A stretch of DNA of 44,997 bases from Gammaproteobacteria bacterium CG22_combo_CG10-13_8_21_14_all_40_8 (lineage in GTDB: Bacteria > Pseudomonadota > Gammaproteobacteria > Enterobacterales > GCA-002770795), in assembly GCA_002770795.1 (NCBI GenBank), contig PCTP01000174.1:4615-49611 (forward strand). Direction: 5' to 3'. How positions within the stretch are numbered: position 1 is the first letter of the stretch; each line of letters starts with the position of its first letter. The translations under genes were made by a program, and so were the position numbers. The notes under the pieces were generated by a model. That model worked only from the letters and a program-made list of their open reading frames with translations, ran no database searches and was not told the origin of the DNA. Below, one piece after another: positions 2,819 to 20,260 of the stretch.

Positions 2819-2893
2819 TCTCTGTGTCCTTTGTGGTTCATTGATTGATCTCTAACCTCTTTCCAAACCATTGAACCACAGAGGACACAGAGA
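2819..2893. repeat. Long imperfect palindrome (25-nt arms, 23/25 complementary, 25-nt spacer) in a divergent intergenic region; REP/MITE-like element or regulatory hairpin
   Basis: Left arm is TCTCTGTGTCCTTTGTGGTTCATTG (2819-2843). The reverse complement of the right arm (2869-2893) is TCTCTGTGTCCTCTGTGGTTCAATG. The left flank adds further CTCTGTG-like heptamers (2811-2820). Confidence 0.7.
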
Positions 2894-3042
2894 CCGCCGA
2901 GAAAATATGGTTTCAGTGATTGTTATGGCTATTTGATCATATCTCCCTGAATATGAATCGTTTTTCGTGATCTAGCCCTGAATTTTTAGCAAAATTATAA
3001 AAATCGACTATATTTAGACTAATCAGATCCCTAATCATAGTT

Positions 3043-3858: not shown

Positions 3859-3860
3859 CT

Positions 3861-5207
3861 TTATGCATCTTTTTGTTCATTGTTCATTAAGGCAACCACT
3901 CTATTTCTCCCCTGCTTTTTGGCCTTATACAAAGCAGAATCGGCCCCTTCAATTAACAACCTTCTTGACACAGCTGCATTGGGTTGCATGGTACAAATAC
4001 CTAAGCTCAATGTCACTATCGGCATCACATTTGATTTAACATGGGGTATTTTTAATTGGCGAATATTATTCAATATAAATTCAGCACAGGCTTTGGCTTT
4101 GTCAGCATCATACTGAGGTAGCACAATCACAAACTCTTCCCCTCCATATCTTGCCACCAAGCAATTGTCATTTTTGCAAGTCGTAGCGATACATTCAGCA
4201 ACCATTTTTAAGCAATCATCACCCTGCTGATGACCATATTCATCATTATATTGTTTAAAAAAATCAATATCCGCCATAATCAAAGAAATTTGTCCATTCT
4301 GTGCAATAATATTTTTCCAACTGTTTTCAAAAAACTCTTCAAAGCGACGTCGATTGCTGATATTGGTTAATTTATCCACATTAGAAATATCTATCAATTG
4401 TTGTATGACTTTTTTACTTTCAGTTAAATCCTGCAAATGGCAGACAAATAAAGGATAGTTTAAACTTAAAGGCTCTATGTTAAGTTTGGCGGTAAATTGT
4501 GAACGATGTTTGGAAGCTAGCACGACTTCATTTGAAAAACGTCTATCTAATGTGGCTGCTTGCTTGAGACTTAGAAACTCTTGTGCTGCACTCTTGTCCT
4601 CTCCTTGTAAAAACTCAAGAAAATGCTGCCCTACAAGCCCCTTTTCATCACACCCAAACAGAGCTAAAGCAGCTGGATTGGCTGATTCAATCAGATCGGG
4701 TGGCACTAAGGTGATAATAGCTTGGGCAATCTCATTAATAATCGCTCGATTTCTCACTTCATAATCTTGTAGCATTTCAACCAGCTGTTCTTGGTGCCGA
4801 GTTAAAGATTGTATTTTGAGATGAGTGGCAATACGGGCAAGTACTTCTTCTTGTTTGATGGGTTTGGAAATATAATCAACCGCCCCTGCTGCAAACCCTT
4901 CGACTATATCAGCGACTTCAGTTTTAGCGGTAACAAATATGACTGGAATATTCGCGGTACTTTCTGCTTGTTTAAGTAGCCTGCAGGTTTCTATGCCATT
5001 TGGGTGTGGCATCATCACATCCAGTAAAATCAGATCGGGTTGTAACTTTGGCGCAATTTTAAGCGCTATTTCACCATTGGGTGCTGCTGCTACTTTATAT
5101 CCTTTTTGAGTCAGGATCTTATACAACAAATCAATATTGGCTGGCGTATCATCTACAATTAATATTTCAGATCCTTGAATATTTTGCGCTATCATTTTAA
5201 AAGGCAT
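3861..5207 (-). CDS. Response regulator-diguanylate cyclase (REC-PAS-GGDEF)
   Basis: REC domain: ILIVDDTPANIDLL, DLILLDVMMPHPNGIE, VIFVTAK. The central region is PAS-like (AQAIITLVP...GCDEKGLVGQHFLEF). GGDEF domain with ARYGGEEFVIVLP. The canonical RxxD I-site position upstream of GGEEF reads NDNC, so it is absent. Confidence 0.9.
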   Translation of the reverse strand: MPFKMIAQNIQGSEILIVDDTPANIDLLYKILTQKGYKVAAAPNGEIALKIAPKLQPDLILLDVMMPHPNGIETCRLLKQAESTANIPVIFVTAKTEVADIVEGFAAGAVDYISKPIKQEEVLARIATHLKIQSLTRHQEQLVEMLQDYEVRNRAIINEIAQAIITLVPPDLIESANPAALALFGCDEKGLVGQHFLEFLQGEDKSAAQEFLSLKQAATLDRRFSNEVVLASKHRSQFTAKLNIEPLSLNYPLFVCHLQDLTESKKVIQQLIDISNVDKLTNISNRRRFEEFFENSWKNIIAQNGQISLIMADIDFFKQYNDEYGHQQGDDCLKMVAECIATTCKNDNCLVARYGGEEFVIVLPQYDADKAKACAEFILNNIRQLKIPHVKSNVMPIVTLSLGICTMQPNAAVSRRLLIEGADSALYKAKKQGRNRVVALMNNEQKDA

Positions 5208-5304
5208 ATGGCCTCATCAAGTTCGAAGTTGAAATTTAAGGCATAAAACTACGGACGATCTGTTTAACTTTAGTCGATATTTAATTATTTTTCCATTTTT
5301 GTAA

Positions 5305-6663
5305 TTAATTCAAAATTTGCAGTAAAATTTTATTCAGATCTTCTACGGGTTTCTGGTGGCTCAGTTTGTCACAACTTAAATGCAATTTTTTTTGTTCACT
5401 CACCTCTAGTTGATTTATTTTTTCTTTTAAATCAATAGGATTAATATCTAAAATCTCTCTGAGTGCATGATTTCGGGTACTGATTTTCTGATACAAGGTA
5501 AGAAAACGTCCTATAACCACGTAAGGAAAGTTTTGATGTGATATTGGGCCAAAGCTTGCATCGTAACCCCCAATAGGTAATCCTTGTAATCTCATGTCGA
5601 CTAGTTTATTTGCGCCTAACCAAGCGCTTGCCAACCCTACCATACCGCCGCCAACTGCCCCTAACATTAAACTTGTTCCCGCTAAAGCCAAATCAATTGC
5701 CGATCCAGCCGCGGCCCCTGTAATTGCCGCCGAGGTCATTAATTGGTTTTTGGTCAAGCCCCATAAATACCATTGTTCACAATCAAAGAGATCATGGGGT
5801 AAGCTCATATCTTCTATATGAATTTGAGTATGATAATGGCTATATAGGGTTAACATTTCCTGAATAGCTTTTTGCTCTCGATTGACCATCCATTTCAGAT
5901 ATTGATTTTTTAATAAGGGTTCGACTAAGTTAGCTTGAGCTTTAGATAAGACTTTTTGCGTGGTTTTATGATGGCATAAATCTTCTAACAAACGAGCTAA
6001 AATAATGGAACATTGCTGACTTTGTTCTAGTCGTTTTAGCTCTAAATCCTGAGTCACTAACTTTAATTTCTGAGCCCATTGAGGTTGAAGATGGGCAAAG
6101 ACATTTAATAAGTCCATCTGTTTATGAAAATCTGCTTCCATAGGATTAAAAACTCTGACAGTACGAAAGTATTGTACCAATACGCGTTCCCATTCCTCGA
6201 CATATTGACTATTCTCGATGGGATTGATTAAGGCCATACTGGGTGCGCCTGTCCATTGCAGGATCTCCATTTCAGCCTCATATTCAATACCAAAAGGTCT
6301 GGAACCATCCACCACATACAAAATAGCCGCTCCCGCTGTTAAGGGTTTTAAAAGCTCAATTTCATCCGGAAAAAGCTGTTGGCAGCTGGCATCATCAACA
6401 AACTTTTGCACAGCTTGTGATCGTTTATCTGCACTTTTGGCTTGATTTTTTAACCAAGCCAATACCTTACTGGGACGCTGAAAACCTGGGGTATCAAATA
6501 GTTCATAACTAGAATGGGTGGTTTTAATCTCAAAACATTGTGCCTGCTGAGTAGTACCACTTCTTTTCGAGATCTCTATGGAGTCATTATGGGATAATGT
6601 TGCCACAATAGAAGACTTTCCCTTATTGGGGTGTCCTACCACAGCAAACTTTGGGCTATTCAT
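5305..6663 (-). CDS. Membrane-associated GTPase (MMR_HSR1-type G domain plus DUF3482-like C-terminal region)
   Basis: G1 GHPNKGKS, G3 DTPGF. The C-terminal half carries a Gly/Ala-rich hydrophobic glycine-zipper segment (AAITGAAAGSAIDLALAGTSLMLGAVGGGMVGLASAWLGA). The start overlaps the upstream gene by 8 nt. The DUF3482 assignment is from memory of the architecture and is not verified. Confidence 0.7.
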   Translation of the reverse strand: MNSPKFAVVGHPNKGKSSIVATLSHNDSIEISKRSGTTQQAQCFEIKTTHSSYELFDTPGFQRPSKVLAWLKNQAKSADKRSQAVQKFVDDASCQQLFPDEIELLKPLTAGAAILYVVDGSRPFGIEYEAEMEILQWTGAPSMALINPIENSQYVEEWERVLVQYFRTVRVFNPMEADFHKQMDLLNVFAHLQPQWAQKLKLVTQDLELKRLEQSQQCSIILARLLEDLCHHKTTQKVLSKAQANLVEPLLKNQYLKWMVNREQKAIQEMLTLYSHYHTQIHIEDMSLPHDLFDCEQWYLWGLTKNQLMTSAAITGAAAGSAIDLALAGTSLMLGAVGGGMVGLASAWLGANKLVDMRLQGLPIGGYDASFGPISHQNFPYVVIGRFLTLYQKISTRNHALREILDINPIDLKEKINQLEVSEQKKLHLSCDKLSHQKPVEDLNKILLQILN

Positions 6664-7831
6664 GAGGCAAATACTCCTTATTCACAAAAAGAGTCCAGTT
6701 TGGCAACTGTTCGAGTAATCTTTGCCATTCTTCTAAATCAGATTGCTTCAGGGATTGTAATTGCTCCCCTTGCCAATCCATAGGGCAAAGATAGCCACAA
6801 CCTAGCTTCAAAAAATCTTCAAGTTCCCCTAAAGGAGGTTCCCATGCTCTTGTGAGTACTAGCTGCTTTTGGGTACAACTTATGGTGTTGTATTGTTGTG
6901 CTTCTGTCGCTGTGGGATCTGAGATCATTTCGTCGATAAAATACCGCGTCATCAGATCTTCATCACTTAAATTTTCCGCATCAGCTTGGGTAGAACGAAG
7001 ATTTTGACTGATCAGTTTTCTCGGCACTTGCCCCCAATTGTTTAACACCAAAGGAGGAATTAGTTGATGCGTGATAATCGATTGATTGGGACTAGCTGGT
7101 TCCCTGATATCAGGTTTGATCTGCCGTTTTTGAAGCTTTATTTCGAAATCATTCTCATAGGTTAAATGTATCCAAACCCTCAACGAGACAAAAACGATGC
7201 TTCTTAAAAAAAGACTATAAAAAAGTTGTGTGGCCAAGATAAACTTCCACCATAATCCCAAATTAGACGCCACATTATGGGTTTCAAGTAGACGCGAATC
7301 TTGAGTCTGTGTTAATAATGTGAAATCGGGTTGCGCCTGTTGCCAAAAATACCAAGGTTTAGCAATCCATTGTAGAAAAGGAAAAATATCTGTGGCATCT
7401 AATAGGGTGCTGCGCCATATAAAATTGATATCGGTAACGAGCAACAAAAACACAAAGGTCAATAAACTGGCGATTGAAAATGCAAGGGCAGCGGCCTGAC
7501 TTTGCATTAACAACCAAAACTTATCCAAATGATATTGCCTGAGTTTAACCCACTGTGGCGATGATTTTCGCTGCAATCCAGGAATGGCATAAAGCAAACC
7601 GGCAAGATTAAGTCCCTTTCCAAACAACGCACTGCCAAGGGAAACGATGATACTCAAAATAGGGATGAGCATGTAAACCACCAAAAGATGAAACAGATTC
7701 ACTCGACCCTGAGCATCACCAGTTAAACTGCCCCAACTCAGTATAAAGCCCAAGGAGGCCCCGATAGAAACAATGAGCCAGCTTAATTTAAGAGGATGTA
7801 AATCAAAGGTATTATTCACAGATATGCACAC
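6656..7831 (-). CDS. Polytopic membrane protein, DUF2868-like (conserved partner of the DUF3482 GTPase)
   Basis: GTG start at 7831. About 6 hydrophobic segments lie in the N-terminal 220 aa, followed by a soluble C-terminal region (…WEPPLGELEDFLKLGCGYLCPMDW…). Overlaps and is co-oriented with the GTPase gene. Confidence 0.5.
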   Translation of the reverse strand: MCISVNNTFDLHPLKLSWLIVSIGASLGFILSWGSLTGDAQGRVNLFHLLVVYMLIPILSIIVSLGSALFGKGLNLAGLLYAIPGLQRKSSPQWVKLRQYHLDKFWLLMQSQAAALAFSIASLLTFVFLLLVTDINFIWRSTLLDATDIFPFLQWIAKPWYFWQQAQPDFTLLTQTQDSRLLETHNVASNLGLWWKFILATQLFYSLFLRSIVFVSLRVWIHLTYENDFEIKLQKRQIKPDIREPASPNQSIITHQLIPPLVLNNWGQVPRKLISQNLRSTQADAENLSDEDLMTRYFIDEMISDPTATEAQQYNTISCTQKQLVLTRAWEPPLGELEDFLKLGCGYLCPMDWQGEQLQSLKQSDLEEWQRLLEQLPNWTLFVNKEYLPHE

Positions 7832-7882: not shown

Positions 7883-8210
7883 AGCATTTTTCCATGGGTT
7901 GATCCAATCAAAAGGTTAACCCCTGTCCTAAACTTAACGCTTTAGTTCGAGCATAATGACTAAAACGCCAATGCACCTATTGCTCTAAGCTATAGGGATC
8001 TAGACCCATGATACCTGGAAATACCGGATTTCAGAGCTTGGGTGGGACGTGGGAACAAGGCGTAGTTCGTAGAGAATGACTGGTTATTGACAAGAGCTAC
8101 AAAGCTTTGGCTATGCTGCTCAAGCCCCTTACCTACGCTAATAATCTTTTCACTTTATGACCCATGAGCAGTTATGGTTATAGTTAGAATTAGATTGCAA
8201 CTTTCAGGGT

Positions 8211-8262
8211 AAACGTTAGCCCCTAACGAATTAGCGCGTCAATACAAACGTTAGCCTCTAAC
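8211..8262. repeat. Two copies of a 17-nt direct repeat, each containing a small GTTAG-N3-CTAAC hairpin
   Basis: AAACGTTAGCCCCTAAC (8211-8227) and AAACGTTAGCCTCTAAC (8246-8262), 16/17 identical. Confidence 0.7.
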
Positions 8263-8377
8263 ACATACATCGTAAAATATTCTAAAAGGTATATTTAATA
8301 GAAGATAGTGTTATATCAGTGAACCAATTCTAAGACAATCAGAAATTAAGGAGAAATGTGATCTGAAAAATAAAACT

Positions 8378-8452
8378 TGGAGCGGGAAACGAGGCTCGAA
8401 CTCGCGACCCCAACCTTGGCAAGGTTGTGCTCTACCACTGAGCTATTCCCGC
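8378..8452 (-). tRNA. tRNA-Gly (anticodon GCC), CCA encoded
   Basis: The reverse complement reads GCGGGAATAGCTCAGTGGTAGAGCACAACCTTGCCAAGGTTGGGGTCGCGAGTTCGAGCCTCGTTTCCCGCTCCA. Acceptor stem GCGGGAA/TTCCCGC, anticodon loop CTTGCCAAG, T-arm GGTTCGAG-type. Nearly identical to E. coli tRNA-Gly(GCC) as I recall it. Confidence 0.93.
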
Positions 8453-8592
8453 TAAATTTCAAATTTACTATTAAATTCAATGAATTAGCTATACTGGATT
8501 AAATCCTTCATCAAATTGGATGCGTATTTTAATCAAAAATAAAATGCAAATCAAATGATTTAAAACATTCTCAAAAAATAATGTGTAAAAAG

Positions 8593-9492
8593 CTATCTAA
8601 ATAGTACCTCTTGTAGCATTCTATCACAATGATAGTGCCACTCAGACAAAACAACCCCAAATGCTTGTTCAATTTTGTCAACACAAAGTTTCGAGTTTAA
8701 AGGGCGTGTTGCGGCGACTGGGTATGCACTTGAGGGAATGGGATGGATCTCTCGACATTGAATGGATACACCATTAGGGCCTTCTTTTGCTTTAGACAAA
8801 ATATACTCTGCGTAATCAAACCATGTTGTAGCTCCTTTGGCTACAAGATGGTAAATACCAGAAAGATCTAGGGGATCTGTATCTTTAGCTTGCGCAATTT
8901 GCCTTAAGCAAAGTGCACTTACATCGGCAATTAATTCTGCGCTTGTTGGCGCCCCTTGTTGATCGGCTACAATATTCAACTGTTCTCTTTCTGCAAATAA
9001 ACGTAACATGGATTTTGCAAAATTTGCACCTCTTGTGGCATACACCCAACTGGTTCTGAAAATAAGATGGTTACAACCTGAATCAATAATCGACCTTTCT
9101 CCAGCCAATTTGCTTTTGCCATAAATAGACAATGGATTCACTTCTTCGGTTTCCTTGTAGAAGCCTTCCTTATTACCATCAAAAACATAATCAGTGGAAT
9201 AATGAAGCAACCAAGCGCCTAGATTAAAAATTTCCTGTGCCATCACAGCTAAAGCCTCTGCATTAATGGCATAGGCATTGGCTTGATCAGTTTCCGCTTT
9301 ATCCACTGCGGTATAAGCAGCCGCATTGACTAACCAATCGGGTTTATGTTGACGGATAACATACCTTAAAGCGTCTGCATCAGATAAATTAAGTTGTGAG
9401 CGATCTAAGGAGATTAAAGTCCCCAATGGCGCAAGCGCACGTTGTAACTCCCAACCCACTTGACCATTTTTACCCAGTAGTAATATTTTCAT
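8593..9492 (-). CDS. rfbD: dTDP-4-dehydrorhamnose reductase
   Basis: MKILLLGKNGQVGWELQRALAPLG, NAAAYTAVDKAE, HYSTDYVFDG, YGKSKLAGE, IFRTSWVY and QQGAPTSAELIAD align along the full length with E. coli RfbD/RmlD from memory. Confidence 0.88.
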   Translation of the reverse strand: MKILLLGKNGQVGWELQRALAPLGTLISLDRSQLNLSDADALRYVIRQHKPDWLVNAAAYTAVDKAETDQANAYAINAEALAVMAQEIFNLGAWLLHYSTDYVFDGNKEGFYKETEEVNPLSIYGKSKLAGERSIIDSGCNHLIFRTSWVYATRGANFAKSMLRLFAEREQLNIVADQQGAPTSAELIADVSALCLRQIAQAKDTDPLDLSGIYHLVAKGATTWFDYAEYILSKAKEGPNGVSIQCREIHPIPSSAYPVAATRPLNSKLCVDKIEQAFGVVLSEWHYHCDRMLQEVLFR

Positions 9493-10704: not shown

Positions 10705-11439
10705 TCAAAACTTTCCTCGAATAAACAACCCAATAAACTGCAAAAGTCTTAACTGTCTTGAGATCCTTGTTGGTTGAACAACTAGTCGAAACAACCATTC
10801 TAAATGAATACGTTGCATCCATCGGGGCGCTCTTTTAACCTCATCAACAAAAACATCGTAACTCCCCCCGACACCTATATATAAGGTGTTCGGGTATTTT
10901 TCCCTACATTCAGCAATAAATTTTTCCTGTTTTGGCGATCCCATGGCAACACAAACAATTTGAGCCCGACTTTTAGTAATTTGTTCGATGATAAGTCCAT
11001 TATCATCGAAATACCCTGAGTGGGCACCCACAATATTAACATGATATTGCTGTTGTAATTTTATTTGTGTTAGGGCGTTCACTCTCTCTGAAGCCCCTAA
11101 TAGATACACAAAGGACTGATGCACACCTGCCTTCTGCATAAGGGACTCCCAAAGTTCACATCCTGGAATTCTTTTACCTGCCTTTCCTTTTCTACTCATT
11201 AACCACACAACGGGTATACCATCGGCAAAAGCCACTGTGGATGTAGAAATCAGTTGCTTGTATGCGGGATCCTGATAACAAGTGACCAGTTTTTCTGCAT
11301 TGATTGCCACAGCAAATCCTGTTTTGATCTTGCCACTTGTGTTGTAAAAAGAATCAGCTGCAGAATTCACTTCTAAAAAAGGTTGAATAGCTAAATCCGC
11401 AAGAGTAATTTTAGAGAGTTGTTTAACTGTGGTGTTCAT
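10705..11439 (-). CDS. WecG/TagA/CpsF-family glycosyltransferase (GT26), likely ManNAcA/ManNAc transferase
   Basis: Family-typical blocks ADGIPVVW, IPGCELW, VYLLGA, VCVAMGSPKQEKF, GVGGSYDVF, KRAPRWMQRIHLEWLFRLVVQPTR. Confidence 0.85.
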   Translation of the reverse strand: MNTTVKQLSKITLADLAIQPFLEVNSAADSFYNTSGKIKTGFAVAINAEKLVTCYQDPAYKQLISTSTVAFADGIPVVWLMSRKGKAGKRIPGCELWESLMQKAGVHQSFVYLLGASERVNALTQIKLQQQYHVNIVGAHSGYFDDNGLIIEQITKSRAQIVCVAMGSPKQEKFIAECREKYPNTLYIGVGGSYDVFVDEVKRAPRWMQRIHLEWLFRLVVQPTRISRQLRLLQFIGLFIRGKF

Positions 11440-12409
11440 GATACCAATCTCTAAAAGTGATAAATTGATTCGTTGTTATAGTCTCTTGTAAAAACAACTT
11501 TAACTGTGACAAAGAGCACTCACTAAATGCTTTGGGATGCCCCATAATAACCATGTGTTTGTGTTTTTGCTTCCAAGTATCATAGGCTTTCATTAACAAT
11601 TTCGACTTGTATCCATCAATAGAAATCACTGACATTGAGGGAATGCTGAGCAATTTAAGGATATTAGATAAGGGGGATTCAACCGCTTTTCCATCACCAA
11701 ATGATCGATGAGTTTGCTTGTTTATTAGTTTAGCAACGACCATTCGCCAATAGAACAAAGGGGAAACTTTCATGCTTGCAATAGGTAATTCTATAAAGTG
11801 CCCCCGATTTTTCGCGACCAAAGGATCATCATCAAAATGCCAATAATCCATTATCGGGGCGTTGCGAAAATCAAATTTCTGGCCAGGTGATTGTAGATAG
11901 CCACCAGGAAAAACGGAACTATCCATTTTAATACCCTGTTCGTATAAAATGTTAGATAAAATATCAAAAGGTTGTATACACCATCCACCAGCACGATAAG
12001 CAATGGGATGAATATTAAATTCTTTCACTAGAATTGTCTTATACTTCTCAACAATTTTTGCAATAGTTTCAGTGTCAAACTGTTGAAGGCGATATCTTGT
12101 ACTAGGTAATAATATTTCTCCATCACCTTCTTTGGCATCTTCCCAATGAGGATGTATGTGCAATTGAATATCATGCCCTGCAGCCAGAATTACTTGAAGT
12201 TGCAGAATAACCATTGATCTATCATCATGCAATGACGGCATATCTAAAGAATGAAAAAGATACCCTGCATCCACGAAAAAGGTGGCTTTAACACCAAAAT
12301 CATCTAACAGTGCCAGTAGTTTATTGGTAGGCTCGATCAAACACTTTTGAGCAGTTCCAATATTTCGCCCCAAGAAGAGTTCGTAATCTAAGGTTAATAA
12401 TATCTTCAC
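11423..12409 (-). CDS. Polysaccharide deacetylase-like protein (CE4-like)
   Basis: N-terminal LTLDYELFLG is the equivalent of the CE4 TFDD/DVED motif. GHDIQLHIHPH is a His-rich metal motif, and YRAGGW is the equivalent of the R-x-P-Y/F motif. The GTG start shares a GTGA 4-nt overlap with the upstream sulfotransferase stop. Confidence 0.55.
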   Translation of the reverse strand: MKILLTLDYELFLGRNIGTAQKCLIEPTNKLLALLDDFGVKATFFVDAGYLFHSLDMPSLHDDRSMVILQLQVILAAGHDIQLHIHPHWEDAKEGDGEILLPSTRYRLQQFDTETIAKIVEKYKTILVKEFNIHPIAYRAGGWCIQPFDILSNILYEQGIKMDSSVFPGGYLQSPGQKFDFRNAPIMDYWHFDDDPLVAKNRGHFIELPIASMKVSPLFYWRMVVAKLINKQTHRSFGDGKAVESPLSNILKLLSIPSMSVISIDGYKSKLLMKAYDTWKQKHKHMVIMGHPKAFSECSLSQLKLFLQETITTNQFITFRDWYHEHHS

Positions 12410-13266
12410 AGTTTATATCGATTTAGCAAGTTCAATGGGAAAGTTAAGAAATAACCTATCCATCGTTTGAAAAGTGGAAGTTCATCGCACCATCCATCAT
12501 GAGATTGAAACTGAATAGAAGCCTTTTTAGCCAAACGATTTCCGCCGATGATATGGCCTATGTCAAAAAATTGTTCTGTCTGAATTTTGGTTAAAATAGA
12601 GATACAATCCAGATCTGTAAAGTTAGCGATATTTTGAAATACAGATTTTGGATCATTTAACAAATCTTCATATTTTACTTTTAATACTTTATTTTTTAAG
12701 AGTGTTCTGGAAATTATTTCAGCAGTAAAATTCACTAGATTATAATAAATACAAGCACTCATTAATCCTCTTGATGTTTGCACATTCTTGGCAAAGGAAT
12801 GAATAACCCCTCTAGGATCACGAACTAAATAGATATATTTTACATCTAAATTATCACATTTATTTAAGGCCAGGGCCCTGCCTATATATTTAGATGAGTC
12901 GATCACTCTTTCTTGATCGCAATGTTGAAGGATCTCAGAAAATAATTCTTCATGAAAATTTTGGTAGCATGATGGTAATTTATATGCAAAAAAATATTTA
13001 AAAATATTTATATGCTTTTCTAGAGTTCTCGCACGCTCTTGTGTCTCTTGCTCCAAAGATTTTAAACAAGAAATTTGTGACCAACATATGCAATCCGAAA
13101 GTAAACTACCGCAGCTACATTGGCTTACAGCTAAATTTCCATGGTTTAGTTGGGTTAACTCCCCTACTTGAATGGCACTTTTAGCAGCTCCCAAGAATAC
13201 ACTTAACGCCGTGCTGCCACTACGTCCTGCGCCCATGATATAAAGAATTTTAGATTTTTTCTGCAT
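12406..13266 (-). CDS. Sulfotransferase (PAPS-dependent, Sulfotransfer_3-like)
   Basis: 5'-PSB loop [12 protein letters not shown]. 3'-PB motif [14 protein letters not shown]. Cys cluster [14 protein letters not shown] moved the start to the ATG at 13266 ([19 protein letters not shown]), because the track ORF extends 84 nt further into the upstream acetyltransferase gene. Confidence 0.8.
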
Positions 13267-13777
13267 GACGATACTTAATGACTTTTGCAGGGTTTCCAAC
13301 AACAACAGCCCAAGCGGGTACATTTTTTGTGACCACAGCTCCGGCTCCAATCACAGCATGATCTTCAACAATTATGCCAGGTAGAATAATCACATTCGCG
13401 CCTATCCAAACATCATTCATTATACGAGTCTCTTTTCTGCTCTTGCCTTGCTGTTGAATATACTGATGACAATCATCAAATTTATGATTTCTGGTATAGA
13501 TTTTCACATCTGGTCCCATTATCACATAGTCCCCGATAGAAACATTGGCATGAATCAAACAATTTTGCCCCAATTCAGAATGGTTACCTATACGAATATT
13601 AGGAGAAATATCTGCATTATATTTCACTCGAATATTGTCTCCACAATTCACAACAAACTGTTTAACCAGAAGTCTACGAATACGGTGAAAGCCTAAAGAA
13701 TAAGGTCGATAATCTTCTGGCGTAAACCTGAAAAAGGCGATGTATAAAAAATAAGCCAGCTTTCTATAAAGACTCAT
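13250..13777 (-). CDS. Hexapeptide-repeat (left-handed beta-helix) O-acetyltransferase, WcaF/maltose acetyltransferase-like
   Basis: Hexapeptide repeats ([31 protein letters not shown] ... [45 protein letters not shown]). Confidence 0.85.
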
Positions 13778-14822
13778 TGGTACCTGCCATTTCTGTATAA
13801 ATAGCCATTAATTTATCACAAACCCTATCTAATGAATAATCAGTGTTAGATTGTATACATCTAACACTCATCTGTTGATAGTCTTCCTGAGATAGAAAAT
13901 GGGCTTTTACTAGCTGTTCCACTAAAGACTCTGTATTGATTTTTTCTAATAAAAATCCGTTAGATCCATCCTGAACTTGCATTTTTGGCCCAACCAAAGG
14001 GGTAGTAATTACAGGTATTCCACAATACATGGCTTCCGTAATCACCAATCCAAATGCTTCCTTGCGAGTAGGCAATACTAAATATCGACTTTTCCTGACA
14101 TAATTGGCAATAGTGGACTGTTCGGCGTCTTCGATAATGGTTACTTTATCTGGATGTGACATGGCCTGAATAGCGCACAACTCAGTCCCCGAACCGATAA
14201 AACAAAACGAAGGATATAACCCTGATTTTGTACCTAACAATTCTATAGCCTCTAGTAACATATCTAAACCTTTGGCCTTATAGAAGGAGCCTACAAAAAC
14301 AAAATCATACAACTTTTCTTCATTTTTTGGGAAAAAGATACTTCTATCAATTCCAGCAGGTATAACAGAACTCACTTTTCTATGATAAACATTTTCAAAT
14401 TCGTCAGCAATTCCAGTACCTACCGATAAAATCTGATCCACATAAACTAATCCCTTTTTCGTCAAATACCTGAATAATGTATTCTTGTAGGAAAAAGTGA
14501 CATCGTTTCCGTGTAATGTCATTAATACATGACTACCCCGTAGACGACTTTTCAATAATAAAATTAATAGAATATTAGGAAATAAAAAATGAAAATGTAC
14601 AACCTCAAACTTTATTTTTAGTTTTTGACGTAAATTGAGAAAATAGCTAATATATTTTATAAGACTTCCAATTTTTCCTGTGTTTTTTCTTTGCAAGAAA
14701 CATTGATAAAACTCGATATCTGGCCAGTTTTTTTTGAAAAAATTTAGCTGATTAACAACAAATATACCCGCATATTTTTTATGTTCTGAAGGCGCATTAT
14801 TGGATGCTATGAGTATTTTCAT
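13764..14822 (-). CDS. Glycosyltransferase family 4 (GT-B, retaining)
   Basis: C-terminal E-x7-E region [25 protein letters not shown]-terminal MKILIASN...GIFV. ATGA overlap with the upstream gene stop. Confidence 0.85.
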
Positions 14823-15772
14823 TGATTAAAACTCAATCTTCTTAAAATTGCATCTAATGGATTTTTTAATCTTGATAAGTTCAAAATTAATGCCAAAGGC
14901 ATTTTCAAAAAATACCATAATATTTTAAACCAATATAAAACCACCCAACCACCTATAGGCTTCTCTTTATAACCAGCCTTGTTTAAGAAATCAGATAAGG
15001 TTTTTTGGATCCAATACACATCAGAGCAGGGTAATTCTGCCATCCATTTTTCTGAGTTATTAGCATTAATGTGAGTATAGTTGATATCACCTAGAGTACA
15101 TTTCAAATAAGCGGACAATTCATTAAGAACCAGCTTAGGCTGTTGGGTCAACCTTTCATATTGAATAATGAAACAATGCTCTCCCTTACTTGTATTGGCA
15201 ATTTCAAAAGATCTAGCCCAAAGTTTGGCCATAAGAATCGGGTTATAATTTAGCCAAAGCCTCAAAGCTTCCCAATAACGCTTTTTCCTAAGATAATTTT
15301 TATATTTCTTCTTTTGGCTTAAAATACAATCTCTTGGGTCCCTTAACAAAAATACAAACTTAAACCGATCAGATAAGGTTAAAAATTCATCGATATAATA
15401 AATATTTCTAGGTGTACTGTCCAAGCAGTGGCTGTATTGACCTCTTATTAGCTGCAAAATTGATAAATAAAGCTGTGCGCCTTGGGTTATCTCACCATTA
15501 TTTATGCTGTTTTTCAATTGAGCTAAAAGACTTTCTCTATAATCATTTTCTTGAAACAATCCTTCTCCATAGGCTAACTTCATCATTTGTTGTTGAGCCA
15601 TTTTATTGAGTGTTTTTGGGTCTATCCTTGAGGTATCTTTGATATTCCAGATATTTTCCACAAATTGTAATTCTGGTGTATATTGAGCCAAATTTGCCTG
15701 ATGTAATATTTTGTTTAAGAGCTTAGTACCGCTCCTGGCATAGCCTGTAATCATGATAATAGCTGTATTCAC
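14819..15772 (-). CDS. Sulfotransferase (PAPS-dependent)
   Basis: 5'-PSB MITGYARSGTKLL. 3'-PB FVFLLRDPRDCILS. Hydrophobic/amphipathic C-terminus (GGWVVLYWFKILWYFLKMPLALIL). The start is placed at the GTG at 15772, which forms a GTGA overlap with the upstream stop as at other junctions in this operon. The track's TTG at 15805 and the ATG at 15754 are alternatives. Confidence 0.8.
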   Translation of the reverse strand: MNTAIIMITGYARSGTKLLNKILHQANLAQYTPELQFVENIWNIKDTSRIDPKTLNKMAQQQMMKLAYGEGLFQENDYRESLLAQLKNSINNGEITQGAQLYLSILQLIRGQYSHCLDSTPRNIYYIDEFLTLSDRFKFVFLLRDPRDCILSQKKKYKNYLRKKRYWEALRLWLNYNPILMAKLWARSFEIANTSKGEHCFIIQYERLTQQPKLVLNELSAYLKCTLGDINYTHINANNSEKWMAELPCSDVYWIQKTLSDFLNKAGYKEKPIGGWVVLYWFKILWYFLKMPLALILNLSRLKNPLDAILRRLSFNQ

Positions 15773-16779
15773 TTTGCAACGCCTCTCAGAGGATAATCGC
15801 GGCAAAGTGATTGATATAACTTAAGGCAATGATTTTCAACGAATTTAATTTGTTCGGGTGACAATTCATACTTCCATTTGCCTATATTCTTAACATCTAT
15901 GGGTTTCTGCGTATTCCTATGATGGTGGTATTTTTCTACGTCCCCTAGATTTTCTTGATCCAACCAAAACTTTAACATAGACTCTTGAAAATCAACGCCT
16001 AAATAGTCGCAAACGCTTTGCATTGTTGATTTAGGTTGTCTAATCAAATCCTCATAATGAATCACTAAAAAGCATTCTTTCCCCAAATTCTTTTTATTTT
16101 TTTCTATGGTGCCATGCGCTTTTAGCCAAAACCACACAATATAATCCGCTTCATTCATCGACTTTTTTGAAGCAAGTCCTGATTTTATATAAGATGCAAA
16201 AACTGCTCTGGGATCTCGGATTAAATGGATATATTTAGCCTTTGGAAAAAGCGCTTGGATATGATCTATAAATTGCGAATTTTTTGGTGTCTTGTCTCCC
16301 CATATCATCGCATCCTGAGGGATAAATTGTTGCGATTTTTCTACGCGATGCAGGCCATAGTTCAGGTATATCATTTCGATGATGTTAGCCAAACTTTGCT
16401 GTTTTTCGGGAAGTGCTTGGCAACTTTGTAAGGTTTTCTCTAGAGAAATATTCCAAGTACTAAATTCAGGATGCTTTTCAAATCCGTTAATTACCATTGA
16501 AGTTAATTGGTTCCAAGGTAAATATGCCTTACGATAAAACTTTCTGATTATTTTTGGAAGAACATAAGATTCTGGAGGAATAACAATCTGAGGATCTTTT
16601 GTTAACATAGTCCGCAACAAGGTACTTCCCGAACGCCCACATCCCAAAATAAAAAAGGGAGTTAAACTCTCATTACTCGATAAAGAATACCTTTTATCAA
16701 AAAAGTGGACGTGAGACTGAATTCTTAGATACCATCGAATCCATTTGAAACCAGGAGACAATAAATAACCTAATTTCAC
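15769..16779 (-). CDS. Sulfotransferase (PAPS-dependent)
   Basis: 5'-PSB FFILGCGRSGSTLLRTML. 3'-PB YIHLIRDPRAVFASY. GTG start in a GTGA overlap with the upstream stop. Confidence 0.85.
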   Translation of the reverse strand: MKLGYLLSPGFKWIRWYLRIQSHVHFFDKRYSLSSNESLTPFFILGCGRSGSTLLRTMLTKDPQIVIPPESYVLPKIIRKFYRKAYLPWNQLTSMVINGFEKHPEFSTWNISLEKTLQSCQALPEKQQSLANIIEMIYLNYGLHRVEKSQQFIPQDAMIWGDKTPKNSQFIDHIQALFPKAKYIHLIRDPRAVFASYIKSGLASKKSMNEADYIVWFWLKAHGTIEKNKKNLGKECFLVIHYEDLIRQPKSTMQSVCDYLGVDFQESMLKFWLDQENLGDVEKYHHHRNTQKPIDVKNIGKWKYELSPEQIKFVENHCLKLYQSLCRDYPLRGVAK

Positions 16780-17777
16780 GACAAACTATCCTTTTCAGAT
16801 TGAGCACTATAACCATATTGTGCAAGACTTATTCCTAAAAGTTTCTCTAGCTTTGAGTTACTCAGGCAATACAATTCACGAAGATTGGACTTTTGTTCAC
16901 TAGAAAGTAAGGAGAGATACCGATACTTGCGAGGAATGAAACGATCTATCCCCTCGTACAATTTCTTAAAAATCACATCGATATAAGGGATATGGATAAA
17001 GGAATGCCTGGCAATAGGATCATGTCGTGATAATCGATTGAAAACCTTTGCTAAAATTAAAGACAAATTACTTAAACTTTTATTGCTTGTTTTTTGTCCA
17101 TCCAGCAATTTTAACCCATCTCTTATTGCTACTTCCAATTTTTGAGAACCTAAAAGTTTCCCCAATTCAGCATAAACTTCATTAGGCTTCTCACAAAATT
17201 TCTCATAAGGTAGTGCCAATACATTTTTTTTACTCATTTTACGCTGTAGATGCTCTATCGCATCATGATACATAAAGTGTTCTAATGAGAAAGCAGCAAA
17301 TCGGTGTCTAACAGCAGACTTAGGCGGGTAAATATAATTTTGGATGGAATAACAGCCTCCTTTTTTAACATATTGACGGTAACATGATTCAATCATGGAG
17401 GTTTGCTCCCTGAAGAAGAGCAAAATGTATAGTTCCACACCCTCAATTGCCGCTATTCTTTCGATCACCTCATAAGTAATACTGCCACCATTTCCTCCAG
17501 TGTGGATATTGCCTAATAATTCCTCATCTGAAATAACATTCATTTTATTGGGGTCGATAACCTGGGCAAGCCACTCATTGAGAGCCTTTGCAGAGAAATT
17601 ATAGGGTGTTTTCTCTAAAAAATGTGCTTGTGATTGCAATCTATCAATTAAATTAAAACAAGGTATGCTGAAAACTTGGCGTTGCCAAAATGTTGTGGCG
17701 GTTTTATGATATCCCATATGAATCAACAGCTTGGGCTTTTTTGGCACAATATTTTCTGTAGAGTTCAATGGGTTCAT
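16776..17777 (-). CDS. Probable divergent sulfotransferase-fold protein
   Basis: The P-loop-like LIHMGYHKTATTFWQ and the downstream LLFFREQTSMIESCYRQY match the positions and spacing of the 5'-PSB (K-T-x-T-T) and 3'-PB (R-x6-S-x-Y) motifs. It is the first gene of the sulfotransferase run. The family assignment is weaker than for its neighbours. Confidence 0.5.
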   Translation of the reverse strand: MNPLNSTENIVPKKPKLLIHMGYHKTATTFWQRQVFSIPCFNLIDRLQSQAHFLEKTPYNFSAKALNEWLAQVIDPNKMNVISDEELLGNIHTGGNGGSITYEVIERIAAIEGVELYILLFFREQTSMIESCYRQYVKKGGCYSIQNYIYPPKSAVRHRFAAFSLEHFMYHDAIEHLQRKMSKKNVLALPYEKFCEKPNEVYAELGKLLGSQKLEVAIRDGLKLLDGQKTSNKSLSNLSLILAKVFNRLSRHDPIARHSFIHIPYIDVIFKKLYEGIDRFIPRKYRYLSLLSSEQKSNLRELYCLSNSKLEKLLGISLAQYGYSAQSEKDSLS

Positions 17778-17976: not shown

Positions 17977-19341
17977 TTGAACAAGCAATCTCACTCAGGT
18001 TTGAATAAATTGATTTCTGCCCTCAAGTCAGACAAACGCTTTCATGAAATATTTAGAGGCGGTGCCTATGTACTGATTGCCAAAGGCATTGTGAGCCTCT
18101 TAGGCCTTTTCACAAACTTATTTATGGCTCGTTATTATGGCGCTGAGATTATCGGTTACGTAGCCACAATTAACTCTATATTAGCCATATTGATTACGCT
18201 TTCCTTATTAGGTAACCAAACCGCTATATTAAGATTTATCCCAGAATTCCTCAATAAATACAATTTCAAAACTACTTATCTGTTGATTCGAAAACTTGCC
18301 TTGGTGATTTTACTTATGGCAACTCTTTTAACTGTTATCTTTGTATTGAATCTTTCACAAATCAGTGCGAACTTGTTTCACAAACCTGTTATCGAACAAC
18401 CTTTATTCATCAGTCTGCTATTTTTGCTCGTATTTTCTCTGATGGCCTTCAGTCAACAAGTGCTTAGAGGATTAAAGCTCATTCACCAATATGTTTTGAA
18501 TTTAATCACCATTCCTCTACTCAACTTGTTGTTATTAATTCTATCAACCTTTTTCTTTTATCATACTTTCAATGCGATATACACAAGGGTGATAGCGACT
18601 CTTTGTGTGGCGATTTTTAATTTTGCTCTGATACACCGCTACTTCCATCTGCAAGTTAGTTTGAACGCTAGCAGTATTCAATTCGATACTAAACCTCTAC
18701 TTATCACGGCTCTACCTATGTTAGCAACGACTTCCCTAGCGACGATTATGGGTCAAGTTGATACTTTGATGATTGCTAAATACCTCCCTGCAACGCAAGT
18801 GGGCCTGTATCACGTGGCGTTAAAAATTGCACTTTTAACCACATTAATTATTCAATCCGTTAACACCCTATCAGCCCCCAATTATTCAGAATTATTCCAT
18901 ACAAAACAAACTCAAGAGCTCAGAAAAATTATTACAAAAACATCCATTCTGCTCTTTGTTCTAGTATCACCGATATTCTTAATCTTTTTCTTTTTTGGAG
19001 ATGCTATTATTTCTTTAACATTCGGACCAATATTTAGTGCGAGTAATTCTAGTCTATTAGTGTTAGTGAGCGGATTCTATATCGCTACTTTATTTGGCTC
19101 TAACTCATTATTTCTTTCCATGACAGGCCATCAAAATACCTTATTAGTATTAATTCTGATCACATTTATCTTAAATGTGTTACTAAACACTCTACTCATA
19201 CCAAAATTTGGAATTGTTGGTGCAGCCATAGCAACCTCCAGTTCCATTTTTATAAAAAACCTAATGGCAACCTTATTTATCTATCACCGCCATCGAATAA
19301 ATACCTCTATATTTAGCCTTGAGATTTTACGGCATGAATAG
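17977..19341 (+). CDS. Wzx-like oligosaccharide flippase (MOP superfamily polysaccharide biosynthesis protein), copy 1
   Basis: 454 aa and hydrophobic throughout, with about 12-14 predicted helices. Sits in polysaccharide-locus context. TTG start in the track, so the start is uncertain. Confidence 0.75.
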   Translation: MNKQSHSGLNKLISALKSDKRFHEIFRGGAYVLIAKGIVSLLGLFTNLFMARYYGAEIIGYVATINSILAILITLSLLGNQTAILRFIPEFLNKYNFKTTYLLIRKLALVILLMATLLTVIFVLNLSQISANLFHKPVIEQPLFISLLFLLVFSLMAFSQQVLRGLKLIHQYVLNLITIPLLNLLLLILSTFFFYHTFNAIYTRVIATLCVAIFNFALIHRYFHLQVSLNASSIQFDTKPLLITALPMLATTSLATIMGQVDTLMIAKYLPATQVGLYHVALKIALLTTLIIQSVNTLSAPNYSELFHTKQTQELRKIITKTSILLFVLVSPIFLIFFFFGDAIISLTFGPIFSASNSSLLVLVSGFYIATLFGSNSLFLSMTGHQNTLLVLILITFILNVLLNTLLIPKFGIVGAAIATSSSIFIKNLMATLFIYHRHRINTSIFSLEILRHE

Positions 19342-20173: not shown

Positions 20174-20260
20174 ATTACCGCATAGGCATCTATACTTTGT
20201 GAAATTTTGCTATACTCCTGATCTTGTCTGTCAAAACTCTTTAATTAACTAGTATCCCTT

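Follow-up and report, generated by a model that had tools for sequence, protein, structure and literature searches.

Conservation of a sulfotransferase/CE4-like gene pair in diverse bacteria and its possible role in N-sulfation of surface polysaccharides

A stretch of 44,997 nucleotides from Gammaproteobacteria bacterium CG22_combo_CG10-13_8_21_14_all_40_8 (the window) contains a sulfotransferase gene that runs directly into a gene for a putative de-N-acetylase. An earlier note, made from the letters of the DNA, suggested that the two genes might form a split bacterial analogue of animal N-deacetylase/N-sulfotransferase (NDST). This raises two questions: whether the genes form a conserved unit, and if they do, whether the sulfate is placed on the nitrogen that the deacetylase would expose.

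Both genes are on the reverse strand. The first (12406–13266, from ATG at 13266 to TGA at 12406) encodes a PAPS-dependent sulfotransferase of 286 amino acids, which belongs to a tight clade within Sulfotransfer_3, here called ST_A. The second (11423–12409, from GTG at 12409 to 11423) encodes a cytoplasmic putative de-N-acetylase of 328 amino acids, predicted to have the CE4/NodB fold. The reading frames meet in the letters aaactGTGAagata, where the stop codon TGA of the sulfotransferase and the start codon GTG of the CE4-like gene form a 4-nt overlap at 12406–12409; the GTGA junction described in the earlier note is thus correct. Both start codons are backed by homologues: relatives of the CE4-like protein open with M-x-I-x-x-T-L-D-Y-E (alignment A1), and those of ST_A open 4–8 residues ahead of the GAGRSGTT loop (alignment A4). 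A longer sulfotransferase frame in the list of open reading frames, with a TTG start at 13350, is without homologue support.

We note that each of the seven successive gene junctions from 10705 to 17777 has an overlap of 4 to 37 nt, and the overlap within the pair is therefore not distinctive inside the window. The signal above chance is the conservation of the pair across genomes, not the overlap within the window. Among 65 adjacent sulfotransferase/CE4-like pairs from other organisms, a 4-nt overlap is found in 31 (ATGA in 19, GTGA in 9, TTGA in 3) and a 1-nt overlap in 11, and the spacing is 11 nt or less in 61.

The earlier note proposed co-occurrence across genomes as a check, and the pair is indeed conserved together in Gamma-, Alpha- and Betaproteobacteria, Bacteroidota and Balneolota. 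The reverse test used 80 metagenome loci picked solely by their sulfotransferase, 67 of which have enough room downstream. A CE4-like gene lies no more than 1.5 kb downstream of ST_A in 57 of the 67, immediately in 46 and after one inserted gene in 11. Of the 10 loci with no visible CE4-like gene, six break off within an inserted gene for Wzy or a C5-epimerase, and three are the weakest sulfotransferase matches. Once contig ends are resolved, L104 is the only true case of the ST_A clade without a CE4-like gene in about 60 assessable loci. The CE4-like family is far larger, with at least 583 species-level genome matches and 1809 protein clusters, compared with 135 clusters of the sulfotransferase, and ST_A is present in only about 24 of 80 CE4-like loci (roughly 30%). 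Such an asymmetric dependence is what is expected if the sulfotransferase needs the product of the deacetylase. The best explanation is that the pair forms the core of a conserved, horizontally exchanged cassette for remodeling a single residue, with the pair present in dozens of unrelated bacteria.

Sequence and profile searches of the PDB with the CE4-like protein gave only marginal matches, so a fold search was required. Pfam domain PF01522 scores 18.7 bits, under its cut-off of 23.1, and is precomputed for about half of the close homologues. The AlphaFold2 model (pLDDT 95.7) has a NodB fold, a distorted (β/α) barrel. All of its top Foldseek matches are NodB proteins (3rxz, 3qbu, 3cl6, 8t0j, 3s6o, 7fbw, 4ny2 and 2c1g), and the best are 3rxz, 3qbu (HP0310), PuuE and ArnD. 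Human NDST1 (8cd0) ranks 36th (E 1.6e-4, TMq 0.46), which is no better than generic CE4 enzymes.

The DYE, H-x-H-x-H and RAGGW blocks that the earlier note placed at the CE4 motifs are found as TLDYE (residues 6–10), HIHPHW (84–89) and YRAGGW (138–143). The putative active site consists of D8 and E10 (motif 1, as a D-x-E variant), H84 and H88 (motif 2), R139 (motif 3) and H291 (motif 5), all at the C-terminal ends of strands in the model. They are among 16 checked residues that are invariant in 122 sequences, and the protein thus keeps a complete putative set of metal-binding and catalytic residues. A comparison of the family with Escherichia coli ArnD using hhalign pairs TLDYE with IDVD, HIHPH with HAWDH and RAGGW with AAAGW, at a probability of only 66%; the same method with the family profile found nothing for the CE4 domain of E. 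coli PgaB, and ArnD alone aligned. In place of the Asp-Asp of motif 1 (catalytic base plus metal ligand) the protein has the variant T-L-D8-Y-E10, opposite I-D-V-D of ArnD, with putative roles of the same kind. Motif 2, H-(S/T)-x-x-H, is present as H84-I-H-P-H88, matching H-A-W-D-H of ArnD and H-S-A-S-H of 5jmu, where the A1 profile aligns GHDIQLHIHPH with GHTVAIHSASH. R139 aligns with GYRAPMW of 3rxz, and H291 (in GHPK), at the end of the last strand of the model, is assigned to motif 5, as the putative catalytic acid, by position only.

These results bear on whether the protein is an amidase at all. Instead, it might hydrolyze or transfer glycosides as a member of the related (β/α)7 GH57/GH38 superfold, might act as an O-deacetylase, or might assist the neighboring GT26 glycosyltransferase with no catalytic activity of its own. 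Foldseek also gives GH57 enzymes and Golgi mannosidase II at a similar TM of about 0.5, the PF01522 score is under the gathering threshold, and the cassette contains an O-acetyltransferase-like gene. However, the top fold matches are all NodB1.2-type proteins and ArnD, the H-x3-H pair and D-x-E motif align with the metal and base residues of CE4 enzymes and ArnD, the 16 invariant residues argue against a pseudoenzyme, and an O-acetyltransferase and an O-deacetylase acting on one cytoplasmic intermediate would be futile. We consider it very improbable that the protein is something other than an amidase.

The other protein is a PAPS-type sulfotransferase, as had been claimed. It scores 52.8 bits with PF13469, for which the cut-off is 27, and the 5'-PSB loop (GAGRSGST, with R15), a putative Glu base (E36), a conserved Cys cluster (C50, C52 and C59) and the 3'-PB motif are all present. 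E36 falls opposite the Glu of ELH in CurM ST and, together with GxGRSGTT and RDxRGVxxSF, is invariant within the clade (alignment A4). The AlphaFold2 model has a pLDDT of 92.9. By both PDB sequence and fold searches, the closest solved structures are CurM ST, OLS ST, TPST1 and TPST2; HS 3-OST ranks 35th, and the NST domain of NDST is absent from the top 50 fold matches. A search with HMMER over 1.84 billion representatives for a fusion of sulfotransferase and deacetylase found none among the best 150, where the sole long proteins are tandem double sulfotransferases.

The earlier note overlooked both a third conserved partner and the larger cassette that holds the pair. The order of genes in the cassette is GT4, acetyltransferase, sulfotransferase, CE4-like, GT26. 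The third partner is a WecG/TagA/CpsF-family (GT26) glycosyltransferase (10705–11439, reverse strand), which overlaps the CE4-like gene by 17 nt. It is placed in the family by PF03808 (174 bits), and it scores 252 bits with the NCBIfam equivalog for WecG (ManNAcA transferase), under the cut-off of 323. In 39 of 80 genome loci the CE4-like gene has a GT26 gene no further than about 6 kb away, and almost without exception on the downstream side; in 27 of the 80 the GT26 gene follows directly, and it is the commonest downstream partner of the family. There is a natural CE4-GT26 fusion, P0099, and a 639-aa reading frame in L022 is probably another. The CE4-like protein has no signal peptide or transmembrane segment (peak 19-residue Kyte–Doolittle value 1.3), and its residue 8 already lies within β-strand 1 of the AlphaFold2 model, in agreement with the cytoplasmic location proposed earlier. 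This and the fusion in P0099 point to action at the cytoplasmic stage of assembly.

Directly upstream of the sulfotransferase is a hexapeptide-repeat acetyltransferase of the Mac/WcaF O-acetyltransferase type (13250–13777, reverse strand; Pfam Hexapep, with NCBIfam matches to maltose O-acetyltransferase and WcaF-like proteins), orthologues of which are upstream of ST_A in many loci. It is preceded by a GT4 glycosyltransferase (13764–14822, reverse strand; Pfam Glycos_transf_1), with orthologues in the same position in L001, L005, L008, L009, L015 and L069 and in many metagenome loci. Further away are a WecB-like UDP-GlcNAc 2-epimerase (35650–36834, reverse strand; Pfam Epimerase_2, 404 bits), a UDP-sugar 6-dehydrogenase (36886–38214, reverse strand) with the N, central and C domains of UDPG_MGDP_dh, which is a candidate UDP-ManNAc dehydrogenase, and a second UDP-sugar 6-dehydrogenase (34354–35631). 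The epimerase and the neighboring dehydrogenases may supply UDP-ManNAcA to the GT26 enzyme. A WecB homologue is present within 10 kb in 13 of 39 full-flank loci, and because the WecB and dehydrogenase genes occur in only about a third of these loci, their co-occurrence was rejected as a means of fixing the sugar as ManNAcA, which we infer.

We propose that the cassette acts at the cytoplasmic face, on repeat units still being built, in the synthesis of a Wzx/Wzy-dependent surface polysaccharide that is heavily sulfated and rich in amino sugars. The GT26 enzyme would add an N-acetyl-hexosamine-type residue, probably ManNAcA in view of the WecB and dehydrogenase genes. The CE4-like metalloenzyme would then strip the N-acetyl group from this residue, and the dedicated sulfotransferase would transfer sulfate from PAPS to the deacetylated residue, with the exposed amine as the most likely site and a sulfamate as the product. 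We infer the substrate, the order of the steps, and the placing of sulfate on N rather than O, and we would put the sequence of GT26 addition, de-N-acetylation and N-sulfation at just short of an even chance. Cytoplasmic de-N-acetylation of sugars mostly leads to re-derivatization of the amine, as with LpxC/LpxD, MshB/MshC, NodB/NodA and NDST.

No computation made here distinguishes N- from O-sulfation, and several observations count against sulfate on nitrogen. The nearest solved relatives of ST_A (listed above) are all O-sulfotransferases. The GT26, acetyltransferase and GT4 genes show just as close a linkage to ST_A, whose dependence could therefore be on the cassette or the residue and not on a free amine. 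The commonest alternative partner of the CE4-like gene, an N-acetyltransferase, would cancel the removal of the acetyl group if its target were the same nitrogen. The lack of a sulfotransferase-CE4 fusion among the best 150 representatives also weighs against it. The literature searched yielded neither an N-sulfated bacterial polysaccharide nor a native prokaryotic N-deacetylase/N-sulfotransferase.

The CE4-like enzyme may alternatively leave a free amine on the residue added by GT26, with O-sulfation there or on a neighboring residue; the amine would possibly serve as a recognition element, and would create a zwitterionic patch within a polyanionic polymer. This would suit the nearest characterized relatives of ST_A, which are all O-sulfotransferases, the NodB/NodH precedent, in which CE4 de-N-acetylation is joined with O-sulfation, and the four further sulfotransferases encoded in the window, which presumably O-sulfate. 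Some loci, for example L044, L061, L058 and L074, carry the CE4-like and GT26 genes with no transferase to cap the amine, and a free amine can therefore be an end product. It leaves unexplained, however, why members of the ST_A clade hardly ever occur in the absence of the deacetylase, and why amine-directed acyl and formyl transferases take the same position in sister lineages; GT26 genes without a CE4-like gene are also common in bacteria, which we count against it. We regard O-sulfation beside a free amine as a serious possibility, if on balance a doubtful one.

The position directly upstream of the CE4-like gene is exchangeable. In 20 loci without ST_A it holds an AAC(3)-type N-acetyltransferase, in four a GNAT or FemAB-like protein and in two a formyltransferase; characterized members of these families have amines as their targets. 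In the CE4 tree the types of partner are mixed: L016, with a sulfotransferase, is sister to L040, with a formyltransferase, and L035, with an N-acetyltransferase, is inside a sulfotransferase clade. Six neighbors first taken for slot methyltransferases are CmoB-type tRNA enzymes (PF08003, E 6e-130), and their loci were therefore left out of the argument; they lie beside CE4-like genes of sulfur-oxidizing symbionts that form an outgroup clade. Several Bacteroidota loci carry, directly between the sulfotransferase and CE4-like genes, a homologue of glucuronyl C5-epimerase of the heparan-sulfate type (PF06662, E 3e-42). A homologue search did not bring up the C5-epimerase of Bermanella marisrubri, and a more distant, long-form homologue, P0396, is in an unrelated context. 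For the one characterized bacterial enzyme of the epimerase family, the assay substrate was N-sulfated, O-desulfated heparin (PMC13308652).

The occupants of this position also allow for a transient protecting group, as in the ArnA/ArnC/ArnD pathway. The CE4-like enzyme would remove an N-acyl or N-formyl group needed only for transfer, the acyl and formyl transferases would act earlier, and the sulfotransferase would be a decorating gene in a permissive position. In fold, ArnD is one of the nearest relatives (E 1e-6), and it aligns motif for motif, and the formyltransferase, CE4 and GT26 genes of L010 and L040 represent the enzyme set of ArnA, ArnD and ArnC. The problem of futile re-acetylation vanishes for the 20 N-acetyltransferase loci, which fit the scheme of "protect, transfer, deprotect" at least as well as N-capping; the slot would then be uninformative on the sulfotransferase. 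On the other hand, such a scheme does not account for the near-obligate linkage and conserved 4-nt translational coupling of the ST_A clade to the CE4-like gene, and the FemAB-like GNAT that follows the deacetylase in NAT-CE4-GNAT6 cassettes reads more naturally as capping of the amine (aminoacylation, then N-acetylation). We think a protecting group unlikely.

If the amine is indeed sulfated, the parallel with animal NDST is one of logic. In both cases an N-acetyl group would be removed from a hexosamine within a glycan, and sulfate transferred from PAPS, by two tightly coupled activities, a deacetylase of the NodB superfold and a P-loop sulfotransferase that probably uses a Glu base; the C5-epimerase homologue (GLCE type) between the two genes in some loci echoes the order of NDST and then GLCE. 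The differences are that NDST is one polypeptide and not two genes with a 4-nt overlap, and works in the Golgi on heparosan and not in the cytoplasm on a lipid-linked Wzx/Wzy repeat unit. The window has no heparosan-synthase-type domain, its glycosyltransferases being three GT4 enzymes, GT26 and a PglC-type initiating transferase, and N-sulfation here is a proposal. The split-NDST reading is supported in part, by the folds, residues, cytoplasmic location and linkage. As regards homology to the NDST domains, the deacetylase matches NDST1 no better than at rank 36 and appears not to be a specific relative, and ST_A, with its PF13469 domain, belongs to the CurM/TPST type, not the HS-type Sulfotransfer_1.

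The closest bacterial precedent for pairing a cytoplasmic CE4 enzyme with a Sulfotransfer_3 protein is Nod-factor synthesis by NodB and NodH, where sulfate is placed on O-6 and not on the amine (PMC11625862). There too the CE4 enzyme lacks a signal peptide and works on an intermediate oligosaccharide, the amine is then re-derivatized, and a PF13469 sulfotransferase belongs to the pathway. However, the Nod-factor amine is acylated, NodB has the canonical CE4 D-D motif in place of D-x-E, and the CE4-like family is some 120 residues longer; its glycan is a polysaccharide repeat unit and its conserved partner is GT26. ArnD, the Und-P-Ara4FN deformylase, resembles the CE4-like protein as a divergent NodB1.2-like enzyme with D-x-D/E and H-x3-H motifs that acts at the cytoplasmic face on a sugar bound to a lipid, but identity is about 12–21%, and the ArnD product keeps its free amine in a pathway with no sulfotransferase. 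The best fold matches, 3RXZ from Mycobacterium smegmatis (E 4e-10) and 3QBU from Helicobacter pylori (E 1e-8), are uncharacterized NodB1.2 proteins with only 15–17% identity and a TM of about 0.5; around residues 170–260 the CE4-like protein has additional elements, and its genomic context differs. Both keep all five CE4 active residues and are the closest relatives of ArnD and of CE18 Agd3 (PMC10967932).

We therefore suggest, tentatively and at somewhat less than an even chance, that the cassette is a native bacterial N-sulfation system, a convergent split "NDST" assembled from a NodB1.2-type de-N-acetylase and a TPST/CurM-type sulfotransferase. It would form sulfamate on a hexosamine or mannosaminuronic acid of lipid-linked repeat units, and be joined in some lineages by a heparan-sulfate-type C5-epimerase. 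If true, this would be the first N-sulfation in bacteria, and the logic of NDST would have evolved twice, from parts that appear non-homologous; diverse marine and groundwater bacteria would make N-sulfated, C5-epimerized glycans like heparan sulfate. According to papers on microbial heparin production from 2024 to 2026, the key bottleneck is that no NDST activity functions in bacteria, and one group made an artificial fusion as a way around it (PMC13353177, PMC11069525). A soluble bacterial pair of deacetylase and sulfotransferase, present in cultured strains such as Kangiella sediminilitoris, Fodinibius sediminis DSM 21194 and Gangjinia marincola JCM 16082 and sometimes beside a GLCE-type epimerase, would be a directly testable source of such enzymes. 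The CE4-like family would then be a general remover of N-acetyl groups, allowing the 2-N-acetyl to be swapped for a sulfo, formyl, acyl or aminoacyl group. Even if the sulfate is on oxygen, there is a large, uncharacterized family of cytoplasmic NodB-fold proteins that is coupled, and sometimes fused, to GT26 and has an exchangeable transferase slot beside it, and these two features offer an explanation of how bacteria could replace the 2-N-acetyl group of sugars derived from UDP-GlcNAc.

The sulfotransferase gene ST_A (12406-13266, minus strand) and the adjacent gene for a CE4-like protein, a putative NodB-fold de-N-acetylase (11423-12409, minus strand), had been proposed in the earlier note to form a possible split bacterial analogue of NDST, the N-deacetylase/N-sulfotransferase. 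The overlap described there is present: on the minus strand, the TGA stop codon of ST_A (13266 to 12406; 286 aa) lies inside the GTGA that opens the CE4-like ORF (12409 to 11423; 328 aa), and the start codons of both ORFs are backed by homologues. Overlaps occur at all seven junctions between 10705 and 17777 and are exactly 4 nt long in three of them, so that within the window the ST_A/CE4-like overlap by itself carries little weight.

The association was judged from other genomes. Among 80 species-level genome loci picked by the CE4-like protein, an ST_A orthologue (E 1e-45 to 1e-90) is found immediately upstream in 21 and one gene further in 3 more, in Gamma-, Alpha- and Betaproteobacteria, Bacteroidota and Balneolota. 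In 39 of the 80, a WecG-type GT26 glycosyltransferase gene is present within about 6 kb, on the downstream side with few exceptions, and in 27 it comes directly after the CE4-like gene. The arrangement GT4, hexapeptide acetyltransferase, ST_A, CE4-like, GT26 is a recurrent set of five genes. In the reverse direction, 80 metagenome loci were picked by ST_A alone, of which 67 had enough downstream sequence to be judged; the CE4-like gene follows immediately in 46, follows after one inserted gene in 11 and is apparently absent from 10. Three of these 10 break off within a C5-epimerase gene and three within a Wzy gene, the same insertions as in the 11 one-gene-insert loci, and three are the weakest sulfotransferase matches; the only clear exception is locus L104. 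Where sulfotransferase and CE4-like genes are adjacent (65 pairs), they overlap by 4 nt in 31 and by 1 nt in 11, and 61 lie within 11 nt. The pair is thus conserved together, with the CE4-like gene downstream of ST_A in 57 of the 67 judgeable loci and in several phyla. It is clear from these counts that the linkage is real and asymmetric: the ST_A clade (135 clusters) almost never occurs without a CE4-like gene, whereas ST_A is present in only about 30% of sampled CE4-like loci. Linkage of ST_A to the genes for GT26, the acetyltransferase and GT4 is equally tight, which counts against an N-sulfation reading of the pair.

The CE4-like protein carries the expected motif blocks, DYE at residues 8-10, HxHxH at 84-88 and RAGGW at 139-143, and is cytoplasmic as proposed, with no signal peptide and no membrane segment; its first conserved catalytic-type residue is at position 8, within strand 1 of a confident model. 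It scores below the PF01522 threshold (18.7 against 23.1 bits). AlphaFold, with 34 homologues, gave a model of pLDDT 95.7, for which Foldseek ranked NodB-fold proteins first (3rxz, HP0310/3qbu, PuuE and ArnD) and canonical CE4 deacetylases next, with human NDST1 at rank 36. A published classification assigns 3RXZ and 3QBU to 'NodB1.2', a divergent subclass in which all five catalytic residues are retained, and identifies them as the closest relatives of ArnD and of the CE18 enzyme Agd3 (PMC10967932). In profile alignments, H84 and H88 fall on the CE4 motif-2 histidine pair, and against E. coli ArnD, D8 and E10 fall on D-x-D and RAGGW on AAAGW. D8, Y9, E10, D47, H79, H84, H86, H88, W89, R139, G141, G142, E207, D265, H291 and K293 are invariant in 122 non-identical family members. 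The alignments and this invariance therefore speak against the possibility, raised in the earlier note, that catalytic residues are missing.

The family is large, with 1809 clusters at E<=1e-3 and at least 583 matches in one-genome-per-species GTDB contigs; our literature searches turned up no account of the family, none of its association with GT26 and none of the cassette. P0099 (570 aa) is a natural fusion of a CE4-like domain (residues 4-329) to a WecG-type GT26 domain, and a 639-aa ORF in L022 that matches WecG and overlaps the CE4-like gene (8150-9262) is probably a second. An outgroup clade from sulfur-oxidising symbionts and Chromatiales (Thiodiazotropha, Sedimenticolaceae and an Escarpia endosymbiont; L018, L031, L032, L034, L054 and L059) adjoins a tRNA-modification gene of the cmoB type and is not part of a recognisable polysaccharide cassette.

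ST_A is a bona fide Sulfotransfer_3 protein with 5'-PSB and 3'-PB motifs. An invariant glutamate 21 residues past the PSB arginine aligns with the ELH glutamate of the CurM sulfotransferase. The structural model (pLDDT 92.9) is nearest to the CurM and OLS sulfotransferases and TPST1/2, not to the NST domain of NDST. A cysteine cluster, CSCG-x6-C-x2-W, at residues 50-62 is kept in at least 90% of the clade and could bind a metal or form a disulfide close to the acceptor side. Three distant relatives of about 660 aa (P0272, P0275 and P0292), which by composition look like proteins of high-G+C organisms, contain two complete sulfotransferase domains in tandem. Every characterised relative of ST_A is an O-sulfotransferase, which favours the main alternative to N-sulfation, namely that the product carries a free amine and an O-sulfate. 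Nod-factor synthesis is a precedent for this outcome, since it combines a CE4 enzyme with a PF13469 sulfotransferase that places sulfate on O-6. We regard a free amine with O-sulfate as a substantial possibility, well short of an even chance.

For loci that lack ST_A, Pfam and clustering were used to identify the gene occupying the position directly upstream of the CE4-like gene. This slot is most commonly occupied by an AAC(3)-type aminoglycoside N-acetyltransferase homologue (PF02522; 20 loci), followed by a CmoB-type enzyme (6 loci, beside the separate outgroup clade), a GNAT or FemAB-like protein (4), an asparagine-synthase-like amidotransferase (4), a UDP-sugar dehydrogenase (3), and a formyltransferase, Wzy or canonical CE4 (2 each). 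In the two formyltransferase loci (L010:9306-11700 and L040:9294-11721) there is translational coupling of the formyltransferase, CE4-like and GT26 genes, with 4-nt overlaps on both sides, and the enzyme set mirrors ArnA/ArnD/ArnC. L010, L013 and L101 have a second Formyl_trans_N gene after GT26, and Leptobacterium flavescens KCTC 22160 is a carrier of a formyltransferase-type locus. Twelve of the N-acetyltransferase loci have the order N-acetyltransferase, CE4-like, FemAB-like GNAT. The same order defines a second conserved cassette in Bacteroidota MAGs, with an AAC(3)-like enzyme, a FemAB/Acetyltransf_6-like GNAT, mostly 4-nt overlaps and no GT26 (L026, L027, L038, L052, L053, L056, L065, L071, L075, L079 and L080, at about 9-12 kb in full-flank loci), and may swap an N-acetyl for an N-acetyl-aminoacyl group. 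A fragment of a different sulfotransferase family (L039:306-887, Sulfotransfer_1, E 9e-12) just upstream of CE4-like and GT26 genes may be an independent recruitment to the slot. The partner types are intermingled when the CE4-like proteins are placed in a neighbour-joining tree, with a sulfotransferase-type locus sister to a formyltransferase-type locus and one N-acetyltransferase-type locus nested among flavobacterial sulfotransferase-type loci. We therefore conclude that the slot has been swapped repeatedly while CE4-like, and usually GT26, stayed. The prevalence of the N-acetyltransferase also fits an ArnA/ArnD-style 'protect, then deprotect' logic, under which the slot argument has no bearing on ST_A, and some CE4-like loci have no slot enzyme at all, so that synthesis can end with a free amine.

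Several cassettes contain a homologue of the heparan sulfate D-glucuronyl C5-epimerase (PF06662); the window contains no such gene. The long form (477-484 aa; E 3e-42) lies exactly between the ST_A orthologue and the CE4-like gene in L003 (1284-2738), L163 (8001-9434), L110, L109 and L136, in the order acetyltransferase, sulfotransferase, C5-epimerase, CE4-like, GT26, WecA. Nine other cassette loci (L017:5782-6834, L082:1645-2697, L083, L084, L106, L130, L137, L154 and L023), one of them from a Kangiella MAG, have a short form at a different place. The animal C5-epimerase needs an N-sulfoglucosamine next to its target. The homologue from Bermanella marisrubri, which is the only bacterial one characterised, was assayed on O-desulfated, N-sulfated heparin (PMC13308652). 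We take the insertion as a lead that strengthens the heparan-sulfate analogy of the cassette.

In the window (36% G+C; proteins matching or near-identical to NCBI PIP80024-PIP80028, locus tags COW84_07385 and COW84_07390, from an uncultured gammaproteobacterial MAG), the pair belongs to a locus for polysaccharide biosynthesis that spans about 33 kb (approximately 8.6-42 kb) and has most of its genes on the minus strand. This locus encodes Wza-like and Wzz-like proteins, one Wzy, two Wzx-like flippases, one UDP-GlcNAc 2-epimerase, two UDP-sugar dehydrogenases, a PglF/DegT/PglD/PglC-type set for a di-N-acetylated trideoxyhexose, one asparagine-synthase-like amidotransferase, three GT4 and one GT26 glycosyltransferases, and three hexapeptide acyltransferases. 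There are four clear sulfotransferases, ST_A and those at 14819-15805, 15769-16779 (minus) and 19319-20173 (plus), and one weak candidate (16776-17777, minus; Sulfotransfer_1, E 0.006), for which L001 has a strong orthologue; the window contains no genes for PAPS synthesis. Between GT4 genes lies the gene for a heparinase II/III-like protein (PF07940 and PF16889; 27802-29622, minus), homologues of which are present in 13 fetched loci. Instead of being a catabolic lyase, this protein could process chains or act as a uronate C5-epimerase. At 17977-22162 (plus) and 31618-32811 (minus), the two flippases and a divergently transcribed plus-strand block (Wzx, sulfotransferase and PglF-like dehydratase) in the middle of the minus-strand cluster suggest a mosaic or two-polymer locus. 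The adjoining genes at 319-7831 (a hybrid histidine kinase, a response-regulator GGDEF diguanylate cyclase and a DUF3482 GTPase/DUF2868 pair) could place the polysaccharide under c-di-GMP-linked control.

Our literature searches found neither a native bacterial N-sulfotransferase nor an N-sulfated bacterial polysaccharide; none is listed in a 2024 review of polysaccharide sulfotransferases, and a 2026 paper constructed an artificial bacterial NDST, none being available. The gene arrangement behind the split-NDST proposal is confirmed and its interpretation as N-sulfation is partly supported. The pair is to be seen as analogous to NDST and not as belonging to that family. Unlike NDST, it consists of separate genes encoding non-homologous domains that act in a different compartment, and the window locus has no heparosan synthase. 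The O-sulfotransferase relatives, the Nod precedent, the cassette-wide linkage, the N-acetyltransferase slot and the slot-less loci lead us to hold N-sulfation by ST_A after CE4-like de-N-acetylation as tentative, at best slightly below an even chance. What the analysis shows is the folds, the conservation of the active-site residues, the cytoplasmic location, the asymmetric gene linkage and the exchange of the slot gene; we infer the substrate, the order of steps and where the sulfate is placed. A bench test is worthwhile because the cassette is present in cultured strains, namely Kangiella sediminilitoris, Fodinibius sediminis (DSM 21194), F. halophilus, Gangjinia marincola (JCM 16082), Flagellimonas sp. 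C4, Psychroflexus longus, Mangrovimonas aestuarii, Mesonia oceanica and Croceitalea rosinachiae.

The simplest model to cover all slot types is de-N-acetylation followed by re-capping, a pattern seen in NodB then NodA, LpxC then LpxD, and NDST. On this model, GT26 would add a UDP-GlcNAc-derived residue, which may be ManNAcA, the best candidate in view of the WecB and two dehydrogenases encoded in the locus. The cytoplasmic CE4-like enzyme would then strip the 2-N-acetyl group, and the slot enzyme would re-cap the amine with a sulfate, formyl, acyl or aminoacyl group; in the window, the cap would be a sulfamate.
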